Shown here: positions 2,916 through 11,134 of the stretch, in pieces
Position numbering within the stretch: position 1 is the stretch's first letter
Layout of the letters: each line of letters starts with the position of its first letter
Notes under the pieces: model-generated
The model's input: the letters and a program-made list of their open reading frames with translations, nothing else
Database searches by the model: none
Told to the model about the DNA's origin: nothing
Position numbers and translations under genes: made by a program
Source: a virus
Taxonomy: Duplodnaviria > Heunggongvirae > Uroviricota > Caudoviricetes
Direction: 5' to 3' (one strand)
IMG/VR virus record: IMGVR_UViG_2695420687_000012
Length of the DNA: 11,134 nucleotides

Positions 2916-2926
2916 NCNNNGNNGGT

Positions 2927-3367
2927 ATGTCAATACATCTCGCTATTGCCGATGGCGGCAACCAGGGATATTTCGATTACACATCACAGCATAACGTCAT
3001 TATGTGGAGATGGCTGATCGCAACAGTATTCATGCTGGAAATGAGAGAGGAAAACGGCACTGTCAGCATCATTGATGATACTGGCAATCCTTCCGAAGTG
3101 GCTGTTTATTCCAACGGCATCGTCGCCATGCCGCTGTATCCAGTAGCAGAGCGCCTCGCTATGGCAAACAACATTGAGGGCGCGATGATAGAACGTTTTG
3201 GCATCGAGTCTGGCACAGAACGCGCCATCATTTTCTACAGAGCCATGATGGATGTGGAACAAGGAGCACTGACTCCATTTGGTCGTGAAACGCTTGCTGA
3301 ACTTCACAACAGCTTTATAGCTGAACTGAATGAAAACGGCATGCCAGCGGAACCAGTGACGCACTGA
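2927..3367 (+). CDS. Hypothetical protein, first gene of the element operon (5' end uncertain)
   Basis: Track ORF of 146 aa with a protein-like composition. The frame is open upstream into the N-run at 2916-2924, so the ATG at 2927 may not be the true start. Confidence 0.5.
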   Translation: MSIHLAIADGGNQGYFDYTSQHNVIMWRWLIATVFMLEMREENGTVSIIDDTGNPSEVAVYSNGIVAMPLYPVAERLAMANNIEGAMIERFGIESGTERAIIFYRAMMDVEQGALTPFGRETLAELHNSFIAELNENGMPAEPVTH

Positions 3368-3377
3368 GGATGGATCC

Positions 3378-3719
3378 ATGATTACTAAAAATTTCCGACT
3401 GAATGCGCTGGCAAATAAGTATGCGTCGGCACTGTATAACCACATTACCTCCACCAGCGGCTGGGACTATTTCATGGTTGATGCGGACGGCGAGGCCGTC
3501 CGTGTGGAAATCGTCAATGGAGTAAAAGGCGTTCGCAGCCTGATCGATAGCTACACACTGGCAGCCATGAAAGTGTTCTACCCGCAGTGGGAAACCGTGG
3601 GGATAGAGCTTCTTGATCGTTGCGTCACTAAGGACGGATTGACTGACGTCGGGCGTGAGATATGGCAAAGCATGGTTAATGACATGGGCGCAACTGTAGC
3701 GGGAGGTTCTCATGCGTGA
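3378..3719 (+). CDS. Hypothetical protein (113 aa)
   Basis: Track ORF; GAGGA Shine-Dalgarno at 3365-3369 about 9 nt before the ATG; begins 10 nt after the upstream stop and overlaps the next ORF by 8 nt. No motif I recognise. Confidence 0.6.
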   Translation: MITKNFRLNALANKYASALYNHITSTSGWDYFMVDADGEAVRVEIVNGVKGVRSLIDSYTLAAMKVFYPQWETVGIELLDRCVTKDGLTDVGREIWQSMVNDMGATVAGGSHA

Positions 3720-4083
3720 AAATGCAGAAATGGCGCTTAGCTCCGCAATCGGAGAGCAGGTGGCAAAGATTGCTGGCGCTGTGTGGATTCATAACCTTCA
3801 TTCTACTGGTGAAGAGAAAATGGCAATTCAGACGCCAGAGGGACGCACCATTACTACATCTCTGAAGGCGTCAGATGTTTGTGATCTGATTTGCGCATTC
3901 ATGTACCCAGCAATGAGGACTGTCCACGGCGATAAGTGGAAACTTGCGACAACCGCTGAATTTGATATGTGGCTAAACAATGATGGCATGCTGACTGATT
4001 ACGGAATAACCAAGTGGCAGATGCTGGTTAGCCATATCGCAAACGCTATAGACCACGTGGGGTACGGTGATGCGAAACATTGA
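3712..4083 (+). CDS. Hypothetical protein (123 aa)
   Basis: Track ORF; GGGAGG Shine-Dalgarno at about 3699-3704; its 3' end overlaps the primase start (4067/4070), suggesting translational coupling. Confidence 0.6.
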   Translation: MRENAEMALSSAIGEQVAKIAGAVWIHNLHSTGEEKMAIQTPEGRTITTSLKASDVCDLICAFMYPAMRTVHGDKWKLATTAEFDMWLNNDGMLTDYGITKWQMLVSHIANAIDHVGYGDAKH

Positions 4084-6826
4084 TCTTATCCGTCAGGTTA
4101 TCAGTGCGTCTGAAAACAACTGGCCTCATGTGCTGGGCTGCCTGAACATAAATGTCCCTGACTCTCCGCGCCGTCATGCTCCCTGCCCTGCATGTGGGGG
4201 CAAAGATCGATTCCGGTTCGATGACAACGGGCGCGGTAGCTTCATCTGTAATCAGTGCGGCGCTGGTGATGGACTGGATTTAATTAAACGCGTAAATAAC
4301 TGCGACACAACAGAGGCGGCGCTTCTTGCCGCTGATGTTCTGGGTATTGATTACCGGACAACGGAAACACCAGAAGCCACCAGCCAGAAACGGGAACAAC
4401 TGGAAACCGAGCGCCAGCGACGCGAACAGGAGCGCCTGAAAAGGGCAGAGAAGGACGAACAACAAAGACGGGATACGTTTTCCCGTCAGTTTGATGACAT
4501 GCGCAGAAAGGCTGTAAACGGCAAATCTGATTATCTGGTTGCGAAAGGGGTAGGTGATTTTACATTCCCCGTGTTGCCCGATGGATCTCTGTTGCTGGCG
4601 CTGGTGGATAAATCCGGCGCAGTAACAGCAGCACAGACTATTACCTCACATGGTGAAAAAAGACTCCTGACAGGTTCAGCAAAGCGAGGGGCATATCACG
4701 CCATAAACGCACCAGAAACAACACAGAGCATCTTAATCGCAGAAGGGCTGGCAACGGCATTATCTGCCCATTTAATTCGTCCAGAGGCGCTGACAGTGGC
4801 GGCGATTGATGCCGGGAACCTGTTATATGTCGCCCAGGTACTGCGGGATAAATTTCCTTCAGCACAAATCATCATTGCTGCGGATAACGACCACAGCGAA
4901 GGAAGACAAAACACGGGGAGAATAGCAGCAGAAAAAGCAGCTTTATCTGTTTCTGGATGGGTGGCATTACCCCCGACAGATCACAAAGCAGACTGGAATG
5001 ATTACCACCAAAAACACGGCATTAAATGCGCCACAGAAGCGTTCAATAAGTCAATGTACCAACCACAGGGTAATGGCGTGAAACAGGAGCCACAGACCAT
5101 TGAGGGAAGCGATTTTAAGGTTATGGATACCGACCCACTGAAACCAAGAATAGAAAGCCGCGAGGATGGTATTTATTGGGTATCTCCGAGAGCTGACAGC
5201 CAGAGTGGAGAAATCATCAATAACGAAAGCTGGTTATGTTCTCCGTTAAGCGTTATCGGTACTGGCAGAGACGATAAAGACCAGTATCTCATTCTTCGCT
5301 GGCTGTCGTTTGGTTCTGAAACGCCGACAACCGCTGCCATTCCACTGGCTGATATTGGTGAACGTGAAGGATGGCGCACACTTAAAGCTGGTGGGGTAAA
5401 TGTCACGACCAAAAGCAGCCTCAGAGCAATACTGGCAGACTGGCTACAACGCAGTGGCTCTCGTGAATTGTGGCGTGTTGCTCATGCCACTGGCTGGCAA
5501 TGCGGAGCGTACATCATGCCTGATGGGGAAATCATCGGAACACCTGAAAATCCTGTGCTGTTCAGCGGGAGAAGCTCAGCCGCAGCCGGATATACCGTCT
5601 CAGGGAGCGCGAAAAGCTGGCGTGATAACGTGGCGCGTCTGGCCTTTGGTAACTATTCAATGATGACCGGGATCGGCGCAGCACTGGCAGCGCCATTGAT
5701 TGGGCTGGTGGGCGCTGACGGGTTCGGCATTCATTTCTATGAGCAGTCGAGCGCAGGTAAGACCACCACGGCAAACGTGGCGAGCAGCTTATACGGCAAC
5801 CCTGATTTACTGCGGCTGACGTGGTACGGAACCGCGCTGGGGCTGGCAAATGAAGCTGCCGCCCACAATGACGGACTAATGCCGCTTGATGAAGTTGGTC
5901 AGGGCGCTGATCCTGTCAGTGTGTCACAGTCTGCCTATGCGTTATTTAACGGTGTAGGGAAACTGCAAGGCGCTAAAGATGGTGGAAACCGGGATCTAAA
6001 ACGCTGGCGTACAGTGGCAATCAGCACCGGAGAAATGGATTTAGAAACATTTATCGCTACTTCCGGGCGAAAAACCAAAGCCGGGCAACTGGTGCGACTG
6101 CTGAATATTCCGTTGAGTAAAGCAGTACGCTTTCACGATTACCAGAACGGAAAACAGCACGCAGACGCACTGAAAGACGCTTACCAGCATCACCACGGCG
6201 CAGCCGGGCGTGAGTGGATTAAATGGCTGGCAGACCACCAGCAACAGGCAATTAAAACTGTTCGTGACTGCGAAAGCAGATGGAGAAGTCTGATCCCATC
6301 CGATTATGGTGAGCAGGTTCACCGTGTAGCCGCGCGATTTGCCATTCTGGAGGCCGCATTGCTGTTAGGCGAGGTTGTAACAGGCTGGGATGCTCAGACA
6401 TGCCGTGATGCGATACAGCACAGCTATAACGCATGGTTGCGCGAGTTCGGCACAGGTAACAAAGAACATCAGCAGATTATTGAACAAACGGAGGCATTTC
6501 TTAATGCCTATGGGCTTAGCCGTTTTGCACCATTTCCATACAGCCCGGCAGATTTGCCCATCAAAGATTTAGCCGGATACCGTCAGCGTGGAGAACATGA
6601 CGAAAGCCCAATGATTTTCTACACATTCCCGGCCACATTTGAAAAGGAGATCGCATGTGGTTTCAACGCAAAACAGTTTGCTGAAGTGTTGAAAAAAGCC
6701 GGGATGCTAACCCCACCAAACAGCGGTCGTGGATACCAAAGAAAATCACCACGTATTCAGGGACGACAAATAAACGTTTATGTACTCAATTACCAGCCAG
6801 GAGATTACAACTCATCTGAAGAATGA
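4067..6826 (+). CDS. Replication primase/helicase-like protein: N-terminal zinc ribbon, P4-type TOPRIM primase, C-terminal P-loop NTPase (DUF927-like)
   Basis: 919-aa track ORF (GTG at 4067 or ATG at 4070). CPACGG...CNQCG zinc ribbon at about 4186-4261; a highly charged helix (ERQRREQERLKRAEKDEQQRRD); IAEGLATA at about 4739-4759, matching the EGYATA-type motif of P4 alpha primase; acidic AADNDHSEG at about 4876-4902; Walker A-like SSAGKTT at about 5747-5767; Walker B-like LMPLDEV at about 5875-5895. Confidence 0.85.
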   Translation: MMRNIDLIRQVISASENNWPHVLGCLNINVPDSPRRHAPCPACGGKDRFRFDDNGRGSFICNQCGAGDGLDLIKRVNNCDTTEAALLAADVLGIDYRTTETPEATSQKREQLETERQRREQERLKRAEKDEQQRRDTFSRQFDDMRRKAVNGKSDYLVAKGVGDFTFPVLPDGSLLLALVDKSGAVTAAQTITSHGEKRLLTGSAKRGAYHAINAPETTQSILIAEGLATALSAHLIRPEALTVAAIDAGNLLYVAQVLRDKFPSAQIIIAADNDHSEGRQNTGRIAAEKAALSVSGWVALPPTDHKADWNDYHQKHGIKCATEAFNKSMYQPQGNGVKQEPQTIEGSDFKVMDTDPLKPRIESREDGIYWVSPRADSQSGEIINNESWLCSPLSVIGTGRDDKDQYLILRWLSFGSETPTTAAIPLADIGEREGWRTLKAGGVNVTTKSSLRAILADWLQRSGSRELWRVAHATGWQCGAYIMPDGEIIGTPENPVLFSGRSSAAAGYTVSGSAKSWRDNVARLAFGNYSMMTGIGAALAAPLIGLVGADGFGIHFYEQSSAGKTTTANVASSLYGNPDLLRLTWYGTALGLANEAAAHNDGLMPLDEVGQGADPVSVSQSAYALFNGVGKLQGAKDGGNRDLKRWRTVAISTGEMDLETFIATSGRKTKAGQLVRLLNIPLSKAVRFHDYQNGKQHADALKDAYQHHHGAAGREWIKWLADHQQQAIKTVRDCESRWRSLIPSDYGEQVHRVAARFAILEAALLLGEVVTGWDAQTCRDAIQHSYNAWLREFGTGNKEHQQIIEQTEAFLNAYGLSRFAPFPYSPADLPIKDLAGYRQRGEHDESPMIFYTFPATFEKEIACGFNAKQFAEVLKKAGMLTPPNSGRGYQRKSPRIQGRQINVYVLNYQPGDYNSSEE

Positions 6827-6851
6827 GCTTCTTCATGTGCGTAGAAAAGGC

Positions 6852-6962
6852 GTTGGTTCAGTTGGTTCAGTTGGTTCAATTTGTAAAGAGTATTGTTTTA
6901 TAAGGATTTTATTCTTTTTATTGAACCAACACTGAACCAACAACACGGTATTTTGAACCAAC
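6852..6962. repeat. Iteron array, putative origin of replication: 3 tandem GTTGGTTCA, AT-rich spacer, 3 inverted TGAACCAAC
   Basis: Perfect 9-mers at 6852-6860, 6861-6869 and 6870-6878; an AT-rich stretch at 6879-6921; reverse-complement copies at 6922-6930, 6933-6941 and 6954-6962 (11 and 21 bp apart, roughly helical phasing). Lies immediately 3' of the primase gene. Confidence 0.65.
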
Positions 6963-7012
6963 ACAATGTGACTGAATTGATGCGCACAACACCTGGCTGG
7001 CATCAGAGAGTG

Positions 7013-7088
7013 TTTTACGAGACTTTCGTAAAATCCTGTGTACAAGGGCGTGACGTTTTTGAAAGTGAGCACTACGAAATTTTCGTAG
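7013..7088. promoter_or_regulatory. Two related palindromes sharing a TTTCGTA / TACGAAA half-site; possible operators
   Basis: TTTTACGA-gactt-TCGTAAAA at 7013-7033 and CTACGAAA-T-TTTCGTAG at 7072-7088, about 55 bp apart, between the iterons and the terminator. Confidence 0.3.
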
Positions 7089-7282
7089 TTCAGAAAACAG
7101 CCCCTGAGAAGTTGTTATGCCTGTTCAGCAAACCATCCGCATAGCTGATCGCGAATCAAATTACCAATGGAGCCAGAAGCAAGGGCAGAACTGAAAAGCG
7201 CCTGCCGTGAAGAGTAATGCGACACCATAAATATAGTTTTTAGAGTCCATAAAAAACCTGTCAAAACCTGACACACAGAACG

Positions 7283-7315
7283 ATGCCACCAGCTACTGAG
7301 CGGTGGCATTTTTTT
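7283..7315 (+). terminator. Rho-independent terminator
   Basis: atgccacc(7283-7290) / ggtggcat(7302-7309) stem, 11-nt loop, then a T-run at 7309-7315. Confidence 0.6.
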
Positions 7316-7348
7316 GTGCTATCTGTTTCATATTTTGCAATTACTATG

Positions 7349-7397
7349 ATGAATATTGCGATTTGTGAAACTATAATAACTGTTGTTTTATACAGTT
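7349..7397 (+). promoter_or_regulatory. Promoter of the small-gene cassette with an overlapping LexA-type (SOS) box
   Basis: Perfect -10 TATAAT at 7372-7377 with a weak -35 upstream. Directly after it, aaCTGTtgttttatACAGtt (7378-7397) has the CTGT-N8-ACAG geometry and AT-rich centre of the E. coli LexA consensus TACTGT(AT)4ACAGTA, covering the likely transcription start. Shine-Dalgarno AAGGGGG at 7400-7406. Confidence 0.5.
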
Positions 7398-7410
7398 ATA
7401 AGGGGGCGTT

Positions 7411-7572
7411 ATGGCTATTTCAGTAAAGCCGGTATTGATAAGTGAGAAGCAAATGGAAGCGATAAAGAAAATTCAGGAAGAGCAGCGTAAAAAATCAGGA
7501 ATTGGAGTAGCGCCAACTCTGCATGAAATTGCACGAGGGTTAATAGATAAGGCGCTGGCAGGCTGTATGTGA
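7411..7572 (+). CDS. Small hypothetical protein (53 aa), possibly a small DNA-binding regulator
   Basis: Below the track's 60-aa cutoff; hand translation gives MAISVKPVLISEKQMEAIKKIQEEQRKKSGIGVAPTLHEIARGLIDKALAGCM. Strong Shine-Dalgarno; first gene after the LexA-box promoter. The strand-plus-two-helix pattern is suggestive of a ribbon-helix-helix fold but unverified. Confidence 0.5.
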   Translation: MAISVKPVLISEKQMEAIKKIQEEQRKKSGIGVAPTLHEIARGLIDKALAGCM

Positions 7573-7588
7573 AAATGGATGGCATCGC

Positions 7589-8050
7589 ATGGAACTAAAA
7601 TTTATTGATAACCCTGTGCGATTACAGGCCTTTCTTAACGAGCCTGGCAATACCGAAAATATTGTTGAGCCGGGGCACACGTACTACATCAAGCCTGATG
7701 CGGTATATCTCGGTATCTACGAAGGATTGGTGCTGGCTGGCGTTCATGAAGTGCGTAACTTCTGGCATAGCATTGTTGAATGCCATGCGGTGTACGACCC
7801 CGGATTCCGTGGTGAATATGCACTACAAGGGCATCGATTATTCTGCAAATGGCTTCTCGAAAACTCACCATTCCTTAACAGCATCACCATGGTTCCTGAC
7901 ACAACGAAATACGGACGGGCAATTATCCGTTTGCTTGGCGCTACCCGTGTTGGTCACCTTGATGATGCTTATATCAGATGTGGTAAACCCGTCGGCGTAA
8001 CGCTTTATCAGTTAACTCGGCAACAATATAAGGAATTCAGCGAATGTTAA
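7589..8050 (+). CDS. Hypothetical protein (153 aa), no family recognised
   Basis: Track ORF MELKFIDNPVRLQAFLNEPGNTENIVEPGHTYYIKPDAVYLGIYEGLVLAGVHEVRNFWHSIVECHAVYDPGFRGEYALQGHRLFCKWLLENSPFLNSITMVPDTTKYGRAIIRLLGATRVGHLDDAYIRCGKPVGVTLYQLTRQQYKEFSEC; globular composition with several conserved-looking Cys/His. The overlapping track ORF 7605..8000 is a low-complexity alternative frame. Confidence 0.6.
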   Translation: MELKFIDNPVRLQAFLNEPGNTENIVEPGHTYYIKPDAVYLGIYEGLVLAGVHEVRNFWHSIVECHAVYDPGFRGEYALQGHRLFCKWLLENSPFLNSITMVPDTTKYGRAIIRLLGATRVGHLDDAYIRCGKPVGVTLYQLTRQQYKEFSEC

Positions 8051-8197
8051 TTACCCATATAGCTCATAAATATCTCAATCGTGCCGTATACGAAAAAGGC
8101 GGTGATGGTGGTGCCTCTAAAGCTCAGGCGAAGGCCCAGCAGCAGGCAATTGATTTGCAGCGCGAGCAGTGGAATACGGTGATGAATAATCTCAAGC
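8044..8197 (+). CDS. Hypothetical protein, 5' part only (cut at the N junction 8198-8199)
   Basis: The start overlaps the upstream stop (ATGTTAA). MLITHIAHKYLNRAVYEKGGDGGASKAQAKAQQQAIDLQREQWNTVMNNLK: a Gly-rich segment followed by an Ala/Gln-rich helix. The track ORF 8044..8325 continues across the N's in the wrong frame into fadM and REP sequence. Confidence 0.45.
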
Positions 8198-8199
8198 NN

Positions 8200-8263
8200 T
8201 ATGCAGAAAGCTTTAGCTCTGGAAGGGGAATTGCGCGAAAAGCTGGAACAGATGGTGAACTAA
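8200..8263 (+). CDS. fadM: Long-chain acyl-CoA thioesterase FadM, last about 20 codons only
   Basis: Frame MQKALALEGELREKLEQMVN followed by a stop (8261-8263) matches the recalled FadM C-terminus (...TQKALALEGELREKLEQMVK); convergent with queC as in E. coli. Confidence 0.6.
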
Positions 8264-8269
8264 AGGGAC

Positions 8270-8360
8270 TATGGCGCCGGATGCAGTGCTGTGGCGGCTT
8301 ATCCGGCTTACAAGCAAAATCGTAGGCCGAATAAGGTATTCGCGCCGTATCCGGCGACAC
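8270..8360. repeat. REP / BIME element (two inverted REP units)
   Basis: gcgccggatgcagtgctgtggcggcttatccggcttac and the inverted copy gtaggccgaataaggtattcgcgccgtatccggcgac, typical E. coli repetitive extragenic palindromes between convergent genes. Confidence 0.7.
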
Positions 8361-8369
8361 TCGAGATAA

Positions 8370-9065
8370 TTACTTCAATCCGGTCTTCTGTTTCATCGCC
8401 GCCATCACCGCCGGTTTATCGGCCAGATAATGATTCAACCCGTTGGCGCGTAAGTTACACGCTGCACAATGGCCGCAACCGTCGCCTTTTATGCCGTTGT
8501 AGCAGGTCAGGGTTTCGCTACGCACTAAATCCAGCTTGCCGTAATAATCCGCCAGCGCCCAGGTTTCTGCTTTATCAATCCACATCAGCGGCGTTTCAAA
8601 ACGAATATCTTTCGCCATACCCAGACTGACGGCGTGGTTCAACGCTTTCACGAATTCATCGCGGCAATCCGGGTAGCCGGAGAAATCTGTTTCGCAGACA
8701 CCGGTAATCACAGCTTCTGCCTTCACCTGATACGCATAAATTGCTGCCAGAGTCAGGAATAAAATATTGCGCCCCGGCACAAAGGTATTAGGAATTCCAT
8801 CGGCGTCGGGTTCATAATCGGGCACCGGAATACTGTCACGCGTCAGGCTGCTGACAGCCAGTTGGTTAAGCAGCGTCACATCCAGCACTTTATGCGCGCG
8901 CGCGCCCAGTTTCAGCGCCAGCTCGCGAGCGACGTCTATCTCTGCGCGATGGCGCTGACCGTAATCAAACGTCACGCAATGGACTTCATCGTATTGCTGT
9001 AATGCCTGCACCAGACATGTGGTGGAATCCTGGCCTCCACTGAACACAACGACAGCACGTTTCAT
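8370..9065 (-). CDS. queC: 7-cyano-7-deazaguanine synthase QueC
   Basis: 231-aa track [23 protein letters not shown]...[35 protein letters not shown], near-identical to recalled E. coli QueC, including the SGGxDS PP-loop and C-terminal Cys cluster. Confidence 0.9.
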
Positions 9066-9129
9066 AAATCATCCTGCTAAATCAATAAAAGCGTTATGGT
9101 AACGCTTGCGGGTAACCCCGACCAGCGCT

Positions 9130-9990: not shown

Positions 9991-10002
9991 NCGGCNNNAN
10001 TN

Positions 10003-10548
<546 letters not shown>

Positions 10549-10846
10549 TTACATCTTGATAACTTAGATGAAAATATTATTCAACATAGAGTTTTTTATG
10601 GTGAGCTGGCTCACACCTCCCTGACGCTGCGGGAATATAGCGTCTTTAGTATCTCCTGCTAAACGCGCTTTTTATCCAGCAGAAAATTCCACTCTGGAGC
10701 GGATTATTGGCACTCCGATAATAAGAAATCGCAAAGAAAAAAATTCTCCGGCGACGCGGTTTTTAACCCGTGTTCTATGCTTGAAATGAGGTCCTCCACA
10801 CAGAGAGTACCGACAACAATGAGGTGCGCGTATGNCNNCGNTGNNN

Positions 10847-11134
10847 CTGGCTTCATAGGTTGGGCGGTTGCCGCTGGTGGTGGTGGCGCGACGGATTGCC
10901 ATAAATGACTGCGCTATGTCGGTGTGTCCGGCGTCAAACTCCAGACGACGGTGACTGATAATGTCGTAGGCCTTGAGTACCAGGGCGTTTTTAACGTTGG
11001 GGTTGTAGACAAACTCCCGGACGGCTGGAAAAAACGCTTTCACGTTCTCGTAAACCCCGTGGCCGACACCTGTCGAGTCGATGCCGATGTAGGTTACGTT
11101 GTACTGCTCGGTCAGNGTNNACCGAGAAAATGGC
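10847..11134 (-). CDS. Phage protein fragment with an RNase H-like IGID motif, possibly a terminase large-subunit nuclease domain; open to the window end
   Basis: Minus-strand frame ...TEQYNVTYIGIDSTGVGHGVYENVKAFFPAVREFVYNPNVKNALVLKAYDIISHRRLEFDAGHTDIAQSFMAIRRATTTSGNRPTYEA, cut at the N-run 10835-10846. The track ORF 10672..11043 is this frame read across the junction. Confidence 0.35.

Follow-up and report, generated by a model that had tools for sequence, protein, structure and literature searches.

A predicted LexA-controlled operon of P22-type DNA-ejection genes in a satellite of P22-like phages

Introduction

The stretch of DNA analysed here (the window, 11,134 nucleotides) is the IMG/VR virus record IMGVR_UViG_2695420687_000012 of the Caudoviricetes, and judged by its sequence the part 2924-8208 belongs to an EcCIMP1-type phage-inducible chromosomal island (PICI), a satellite of P22-like podophages. 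At positions 7,349 to 8,197, behind the replication gene of the island, a promoter-like hexamer is followed by a predicted operator of LexA, the host SOS repressor, and by genes which sequence comparison identifies as the satellite's own P22-type DNA-ejection gene set plus a leader gene. We lean, with modest confidence, towards the reading that this operon is repressed by LexA and timed to the induction of the helper phage. A preliminary description of this DNA had proposed a LexA-box-controlled three-gene cassette of unknown function at this place.

EcCIMP1 is the PICI of E. coli MP1 (Pick, Stadel & Raivio, ISME J 2025; PMC11773190). Its excision and transduction were observed only with the mitomycin-inducible P22-like helper Kapi1, the transduction being inefficient, and alpA is its master regulator, which answers to the helper and not to mitomycin alone (PMC11773190). 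The EcCIMP1 genes behind the primase were likened to DUF2824 or 'DNA transfer' proteins or called hypothetical, and their role was left open (PMC11773190).

Results

The promoter region was read directly from the sequence. A perfect -10 hexamer, TATAAT, stands at 7372..7377 on the plus strand, and the predicted LexA operator AACTGTTGTTTTATACAGTT (7378..7397) starts 1 nt after it and spans the predicted +1, which is placed at about 7384. The 16-bp core CTGT-N8-ACAG (CTGTTGTTTTATACAG, 7380-7395) is made of the halves CTGT (7380-7383) and ACAG (7392-7395), with A/T at seven of the eight spacer bases between them, and it is enclosed in a longer palindrome (7377-7398) with the 7-bp arms TAACTGT (7377-7383) and ACAGTTA (7392-7398). 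This arrangement, TATAAT directly followed by CTGT-N8-ACAG inside the TAACTGT/ACAGTTA palindrome, had been pointed out in the preliminary description and is borne out letter by letter. CTGT-N8-ACAG occurs once in the 11-kb window, as compared to 0.09 occurrences expected per shuffle, and 17 of 200 shuffled sequences contained at least one.

The operator was scored on a heterology-index (HI) matrix, which was rebuilt from 29 E. coli SOS boxes with the published formula. With absolute values about 2 units off the published ones, the candidate scored 4.45 in the better orientation and 7.68 in the other, and the known boxes covered 1.3-9.8. The recA, lexA-uvrA/ssb and umuDC regions of MG1655 contained five of the boxes of the matrix verbatim; in 29.5 kb of K-12 DNA the real boxes alone scored 5.4 or less (1.3-5.4), and the next best site scored at least 13.4. 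The dinD box that flanks the island in strain A30 (L002) was recovered blind as a positive control with an HI of 1.67. An HI below about 15 had been suggested beforehand as support for binding, and the value of 4.45 on the rebuilt matrix, inside the range of proven boxes and far from the background of 13.4 or more, supports the LexA-operator reading in silico. The related loci, 1.6 Mb in total, contained seventeen sites with an HI of 5 or less (about 1e-5 per position); nine of them stand at this promoter, and eight of these nine are Escherichia copies. The 20-mer has the same architecture as the chromosomal SOS boxes of E. coli, being three positions off that of uvrB (AACTGTTTTTTTATCCAGTA) and in the same HI range as those of uvrB and dinD; unlike them, it is carried by a mobile element and stands ahead of virion-protein genes, not of repair genes. 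Its sequence makes it a good SOS box, placed over the predicted start, where LexA classically represses, and LexA is likely to bind it. Two LexA-like 20-mers of lower quality were also seen, TGCTGGATTTGCATACAGAG (HI 8.5) at L001:11422 inside the gp20 coding sequence, present also in L002, L004 and L005, and TGCTGTTAATAAATCCATTT (HI 8.6) at window position 1432 in an unrelated segment, and these are probably due to chance.

The open reading frames (ORFs) behind the operator are those at 7411-7572, encoding 53 amino acids (aa), and 7589-8050 (153 aa), and a third gene begins at 8044, with its start overlapping the preceding stop by 7 nt (ATGTTAA); this layout had been described correctly before. 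The 153-aa product (7589..8050, plus strand) is a P22 gp14-type protein of the DUF2824 family. It matched PF11039 with an E-value of 2.3e-61 and 206.7 bits (cut-off 25) from profile position 1 to 148 of 151, that is over the full length of the family, matched phrog_651 'head morphogenesis' with an E-value of 2e-66, and is 83% identical to Kapi1_055. The third gene (8044..8208, plus strand), whose start overlaps the gp14 stop, is the 5' fragment, about 54 codons, of a P22 gp7-type ejection gene. A 51-aa piece of it reached 29.8 bits against PF25688 P22_gp7 (cut-off 28) and 5e-9 against phrog_598, and the intact 225-aa orthologue in L002 matched PF25688 with 8e-72 and 242 bits. In complete genomes the operon goes on with overlapping stops and starts into gp20, directly after gp7 (PF16928 2e-58, phrog_917), and gp16 (phrog_770 5e-162), and this five-gene order is annotated there; gp20 and gp16 are absent from the window because of an assembly join. 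NCBIfam gave no name for any protein of the operon. A nucleotide search with the operon against phage genomes returned patchy matches of 5-13% coverage only, and the operon was therefore rejected as a recent copy of a sequenced phage.

By these family matches the operon is the satellite's own set of P22-type DNA-ejection genes plus a leader gene. The preliminary description had seen here a cassette of unknown function and suspected accessory cargo such as defence, antirepressor or toxin genes, and had itself named confident homology to virion or ejection proteins as the finding that would speak against it; such homology was found for both the 153-aa and the third protein. An SOS-controlled accessory cassette is hardly credible at this locus, where gp14, gp7, gp20 and gp16 were recognised at E-values of 1e-58 to 1e-162 and PADLOC gave no match for the 53-aa or the 153-aa protein, and defence, toxin and antirepressor cargo was rejected on these grounds. 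What speaks for the idea comes from related elements, in which strong LexA boxes stand ahead of candidate defence genes. Very strong boxes (HI 1.2-4.2) were seen between the origin and the small-ORF promoter at L029:7025, L048:13772 and L054:12494, and the genes behind them are PDC-M53A (PADLOC) in L029, PDC-M18A (E 2e-133) in L048 and a SocA/Panacea protein in L054. By sequence, the satellite family does include defence-like cargo behind SOS boxes, though this locus has none.

Identity of the element was established by comparison with complete genomes. The segment 2924-8208 is 99.7-99.9% identical to islands in the complete E. coli genomes L001 and L002 and 99.4% identical to an element of Escherichia sp. 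MOD1-EC7003 (L007). The complete relatives carry an integrase, an AlpA-type regulator, AntA/AntB and Ash-family genes, the primase, the ejection operon and a PerC-family gene; integrase, AlpA, and primase with origin were all found in L001-L003, where no capsid, tail or lysis gene is annotated, which is the make-up of an EcCIMP1-type PICI. The window itself holds the primase-to-gp7 part, and the remaining features were read from L001-L003. EcCIMP1 (L003) shares the box and, with full identity, the 53-aa protein, has gp14 and gp7 at 99% identity, and agrees in the order of primase, origin and operon; its helper is the P22-like Kapi1. It differs from the window-type element in gp20, which shows 48% identity over the N-terminal 188 residues, and in gp16, which is a 906-aa SLT-gp16 fusion in EcCIMP1 and a 701-aa protein in the window-type element. 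The small ORF was present in 498 of 5426 complete E. coli genomes (about 9%), and the 37-mer of promoter and box in 333 of 5426 at an identity of at least 95%.

The conservation of the box was followed by scanning one genome per species with the primase protein, which turned up about 65 loci in Enterobacterales; a homologue of the small ORF is present in about 38 loci overall. The small ORF always stands behind the same promoter, made of TTTCA-N5-GCAA repeats, TATAAT and CTGTAT, and the -10 reads TATAAT or TAAAAT in most of the loci. The 16-bp core is unchanged in all 11 Escherichia loci read, which include copies with small ORFs diverged by 10%, one different primase type and three downstream gene sets. 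The correct CTG-N10-CAG spacing, with differing spacers, was also found in Leclercia (L036), Lonsdalea (L017), Pantoea (L026 and L056), Serratia (L061 and L065) and Acerihabitans (L060/L049), and the HI of these correctly spaced boxes outside Escherichia was 4.2-9.4. One imperfect half-site (HI 7-9) was seen in five loci (L025, L029, L034/L047 and L048). A ribosome-binding site, GGGGG, lies at 7402-7406 ahead of the 53-aa ORF, and in the Escherichia type the right arm of the palindrome is apart from this Shine-Dalgarno sequence, so that ribosome binding does not explain the arm; LexA function would be the simplest reason for it. An RNA role of the palindrome was rejected as well, because the fold of 7372-7415 was weak (-8.7 kcal/mol, z -2.0) and left the arms unused.

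The first gene of the operon (7411..7572, plus strand) is conserved with 43-100% identity in the small-ORF loci counted above. Its 53-aa product gave no match in Pfam, NCBIfam or PDB, and neither fold nor profile searches returned anything significant. The AlphaFold2 (AF2) model (predicted local distance difference test score 77.6) has helices at 12-29 and 37-52 and an extended N-terminus, and no sequence or fold similarity to ribbon-helix-helix regulators of the Arc, CopG or MetJ type was detectable. The suggestion that this protein might be a regulator could not be confirmed in this way. If it were one, the palindrome could be the operator of another regulator, by autoregulation of the 53-aa protein or through a helper or island repressor, and its likeness to an SOS box a coincidence. 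The gene immediately follows the palindrome and is conserved at every locus that has the promoter, small DNA-binding proteins typically show the strand-helix-helix order of the model, and CTGTAT beside the -10 is kept even where the LexA spacing is lost. However, the protein can be assigned to no DNA-binding family, Leclercia L043 retains it without the palindrome, and the single such box in each element copy led us to reject a repressor encoded by the element and acting on several operators. We regard another regulator at this site as improbable, and LexA is preferred as the protein that would bind here.

The region upstream of the operon contains the primase, origin and terminator that the preliminary description had placed there. 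The satellite primase/replicase (4067..6826, plus strand, 919 aa) has a zinc ribbon, a Toprim and a DUF927 domain (Pfam DUF927 3.5e-47, Toprim_3 6e-15, Zn_Ribbon_Prim 3e-15) and is annotated as 'TOPRIM and DUF927 domain-containing protein' in L001-L003. It is followed at 6852..6964 by a putative origin with three copies of GTTGGTTCA (6852-6884), an A/T-rich spacer and three inverted copies of TGAACCAAC (6921-6964); 'gaaccaac' repeats likewise stand 3' of the primase gene in other genera (L036, L038, L052), and the iteron field presumably works as the origin. An intrinsic terminator was predicted at 7274..7318 on the plus strand, with a hairpin of -26.2 kcal/mol (z -5.88, none of 200 shuffles as stable) and a T run (7309-7315) inside the 3' side of the hairpin, and it is predicted to insulate the operon from the replication operon; a sequence scan gave terminator-like hits as well. 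Between origin and terminator, two copies of a self-complementary 15-mer (TACGAGACTTTCGTA at 7016-7030 and TACGAAATTTTCGTA at 7073-7087) were observed 57 bp apart.

The window is a mosaic of at least six segments, the joints of which are marked by short N-sprinkled patches at seven places (38-44, 2262-2265, 2916-2923, 8198-8199, 9991-10002, 10835-10846 and 11116-11120), and only 2924-8208 is mobile-element DNA; no Rfam or tRNA match was found in the window. In alignments to L001, L002 and L007 the homology of the element passes the NN at 8198-8199 by 9 nt and ends at 8208, so that the join sits at about 8209 and not at the NN itself. The DNA past 8208 is the 3' end of chromosomal fadM (8209..8263, plus strand, directly behind the join and outside the element), REP-like (repetitive extragenic palindromic) DNA and queC. 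The stretch 8200-9100 maps to fadM/queC at about 90% identity, with the same ceiling of about 90% against every E. coli genome, and the host is therefore probably a non-coli Escherichia. A contiguous 8000-8400 was found in none of the 5426 complete E. coli genomes, and a real genomic junction at the NN was rejected on this count together with the fadM-queC origin of the downstream DNA. These comparisons show that the third gene is cut off by an artefact of assembly and that the 93-aa ORF at 8044-8325 is a chimera across the join; the supposed three-gene cassette is to be replaced by a translationally coupled five-gene operon shortened by the join. The gp14 sequence is common to the satellite and P22-like prophages, and this may explain why a draft assembly would break here.

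Discussion

The scheme that we consider somewhat more probable than its alternatives taken together is that of a LexA-repressed satellite operon for ejection proteins whose expression is timed to helper induction. In the undamaged cell, LexA on the box would block initiation of the operon. DNA damage would activate RecA and lead to self-cleavage of LexA, and the operon would then be derepressed in the same cells and at the same time as the SOS-inducible P22-like helper prophage turns lytic. The helper would also switch on the AlpA-dependent excision and replication of the island. The satellite gp14, gp7, gp20 and gp16 would thus be made during assembly of the helper procapsids, would enter those procapsids that package satellite DNA, and would form the trans-envelope DNA conduit in the next host.

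Comparison with known systems places the operon between two groups. The late genes 14-7-20-16 of P22 comprise the same four families in the same order and with overlapping reading frames. In P22-like phages, e.g. Kapi1, this cluster lies among virion genes directly behind the tail-needle gene and without a separate SOS box, whereas the satellite has it as an operon by itself, with a promoter of its own, a predicted SOS box and an extra 53-aa leader gene, on an element without annotated capsid, tail or lysis genes. Operon I of the staphylococcal pathogenicity islands (SaPIs), a packaging/capsid module, is LexA-controlled (PMC5052747, citing Ubeda 2007). Like it, the present operon is a satellite virion/packaging operon that follows the replication module, with control by the host SOS repressor being predicted here. 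The genes are different, with terS, cpmAB and pti there and gp14, gp7, gp20 and gp16 here, so that no homologue of terS, cpmA/B or ptiA/B/M is shared, and the host of the SaPIs is Gram-positive with a LexA that recognises a different motif. The operon would therefore be analogous to SaPI operon I in its working without being a member of that class. The view that SOS-coupled cargo in a satellite would be unusual was overstated in the light of the SaPI operon; SOS coupling of a satellite morphogenesis module has a precedent and is undescribed for Gram-negative islands or for ejection proteins. P4-like satellites are also integrative, with a large Toprim primase, then an iteron origin, and an AlpA-type regulator. 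Their helper is a P2-like myophage, while the helper here is a podophage, and no sid-delta-psu module for capsid size and late control is annotated in the complete L001-L003.

Several observations weigh against the scheme, and most of them concern the promoter and its relatives. Conservation of the box within Escherichia is weak evidence, since the copies are closely related. In 12 loci (L008, L010, L011, L018, L021, L024, L027, L030, L032, L045, L064 and L069) the half-sites are one base too close, CTG-N9-CAG, with an HI of 13-16. The box reads CTGTAT-N5-ATCAGGAGG in this class, its right half being merged with the Shine-Dalgarno sequence, and the N10 version is found in L017 and L026. Another six loci have a degenerate box, including Leclercia L043, whose small ORF is 82% identical to that of the window. 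About 18 related loci are without a correctly spaced box, and LexA control is not family-wide. At the site itself no -35 is recognisable and a two-hexamer consensus promoter scan did not call it, for which reasons we infer promoter activity from the -10 alone; an activator may be required, and LexA is possibly not the main control. Only five of the 29 sites of the HI matrix were verified exactly in MG1655, and a sixth, dinD, was one base off the L002 sequence. The entry of satellite-encoded ejection proteins into virions is a proposal. LexA is not mentioned in the EcCIMP1 paper (PMC11773190), and searches of a literature library returned no prior report of the box sequence, of LexA in Gram-negative PICIs or of an EcCIMP1 follow-up. 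Both the element and its genes have been described before. For the predicted LexA gating and for the delivery-protein slot shared across the family, no earlier report seems to exist.

From the distribution of the boxes, SOS gating of this promoter is recurrent and dispensable, and it is possibly ancestral; a one-base indel in the spacer seems to toggle it. CTGTAT stays conserved in the N9 class although the LexA spacing is lost there. A possible activator site was found upstream, where the inverted pair TTTCATATTTTGCAA (7326..7340) and TTGCGATTTGTGAAA (7356..7370) spans about -58 to -14 and is a candidate site of an activator or repressor. The pair, located by a pattern search, consists of TTTCA-N5-GCAA motifs, which are kept at this promoter across genera, with the promoter-proximal unit in direct orientation outside Escherichia and Leclercia; the motif was not found upstream of alpA. 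The missing -35 together with these repeats suggests that an activator is also needed. The box could then be vestigial or weak, and AlpA or a helper activator could drive the operon through the repeats, which would agree with the lack of a -35, with the conserved repeats and with the finding that about half of the related promoters have no functional-looking box. We hold this to be quite unlikely: the 16-bp core is perfect, has extended arms, is placed exactly on the predicted +1 and is intact in every Escherichia copy read. Activation and LexA repression are also compatible with each other, and a promoter that needs both the activator and the removal of LexA is plausible.

The LexA-gated operon may also be real and its products antiphage, either because their misincorporation spoils helper virions or because they exclude P22-like DNA at the envelope. 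EcCIMP1 increases the superinfection immunity of Kapi1 lysogens (PMC11773190), and most of the studied satellite morphogenesis operons, SaPI operon I included, interfere with the helper (PMC5052747). Between EcCIMP1 and its helper (L003 vs L086) the identity falls along the operon, from 83% for gp14 and 57% for gp7 to 26% for gp20 and about 24% for gp16, and mixed assemblies of such distant gp20 and gp16 could be defective. On the other hand, the titre of Kapi1 after induction is not lowered by EcCIMP1 (PMC11773190), and repression by LexA would keep the operon silent in the healthy lysogens used for the immunity measurement. Further exclusion candidates adjoin the operon. A convergent gene directly after gp16 (L002:14020-14409, minus strand) encodes a 129-aa protein with about four hydrophobic segments, at the position of sieA in P22, and EcCIMP1 has a 232-aa lipoprotein with an LLAGC lipobox after gp16 instead (L003:5632-6330, minus strand). 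Either of these, the membrane protein or the lipoprotein, might account for the superinfection immunity seen with EcCIMP1, and an antiphage role of the operon itself is unlikely. In a further Escherichia variant (L004:7335-8006 and L006:7334-8005, also L034 and L047) the ejection genes behind the box-bearing promoter and the small ORF give way to a gene for a 223-aa HEAGH (HExxH) protein, which had no significant family match, and then a PerC-family gene.

The same promoter and 53-aa leader gene precede differing virion genes in other genera (L008-L069). About 12 loci encode a tape-measure protein of 860-1245 aa, with a 108-aa protein ahead of it in most; six encode a tape-measure-like protein of 584-635 aa, most with a transglycosylase/endolysin-related C-terminal domain; five have podovirus internal-virion proteins (phrog_418, 1044, 992 and 3003), one has a baseplate hub and one a weak match to a small terminase. 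DNA-conduit proteins, which leave the virion, are encoded in about 31 of 39 loci. Superinfection exclusion is documented to aim at such proteins, with SieA acting on gp16 and gp20 and changes of the tape measure allowing escape in TP-J34 and HK97 (PMC10461980). A wider idea, doubtful as we hold it, is that EcCIMP1-type satellites across the Enterobacterales re-equip stolen virions with their own conduit proteins from a swappable genome-delivery slot and so gain access to cells closed to the helper, helper lysogens among them, with SOS gating timing this to helper induction. The low identity of EcCIMP1 gp20 and gp16 to those of the helper (about 25%), as compared to gp14 and gp7, is consistent with such re-equipping.

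If the box works, DNA-damaging antibiotics would act directly on a common satellite and turn on its virion-protein operon without need of the helper signal by which AlpA is controlled. Gram-negative PICIs would then share the SOS link shown for the staphylococcal islands, which would bear on antibiotic-driven gene transfer. The 'DNA transfer' genes of EcCIMP1 gain a testable regulation and function, and the family pattern raises the question whether satellites customise the DNA-delivery machinery of stolen particles and thereby bypass superinfection exclusion.

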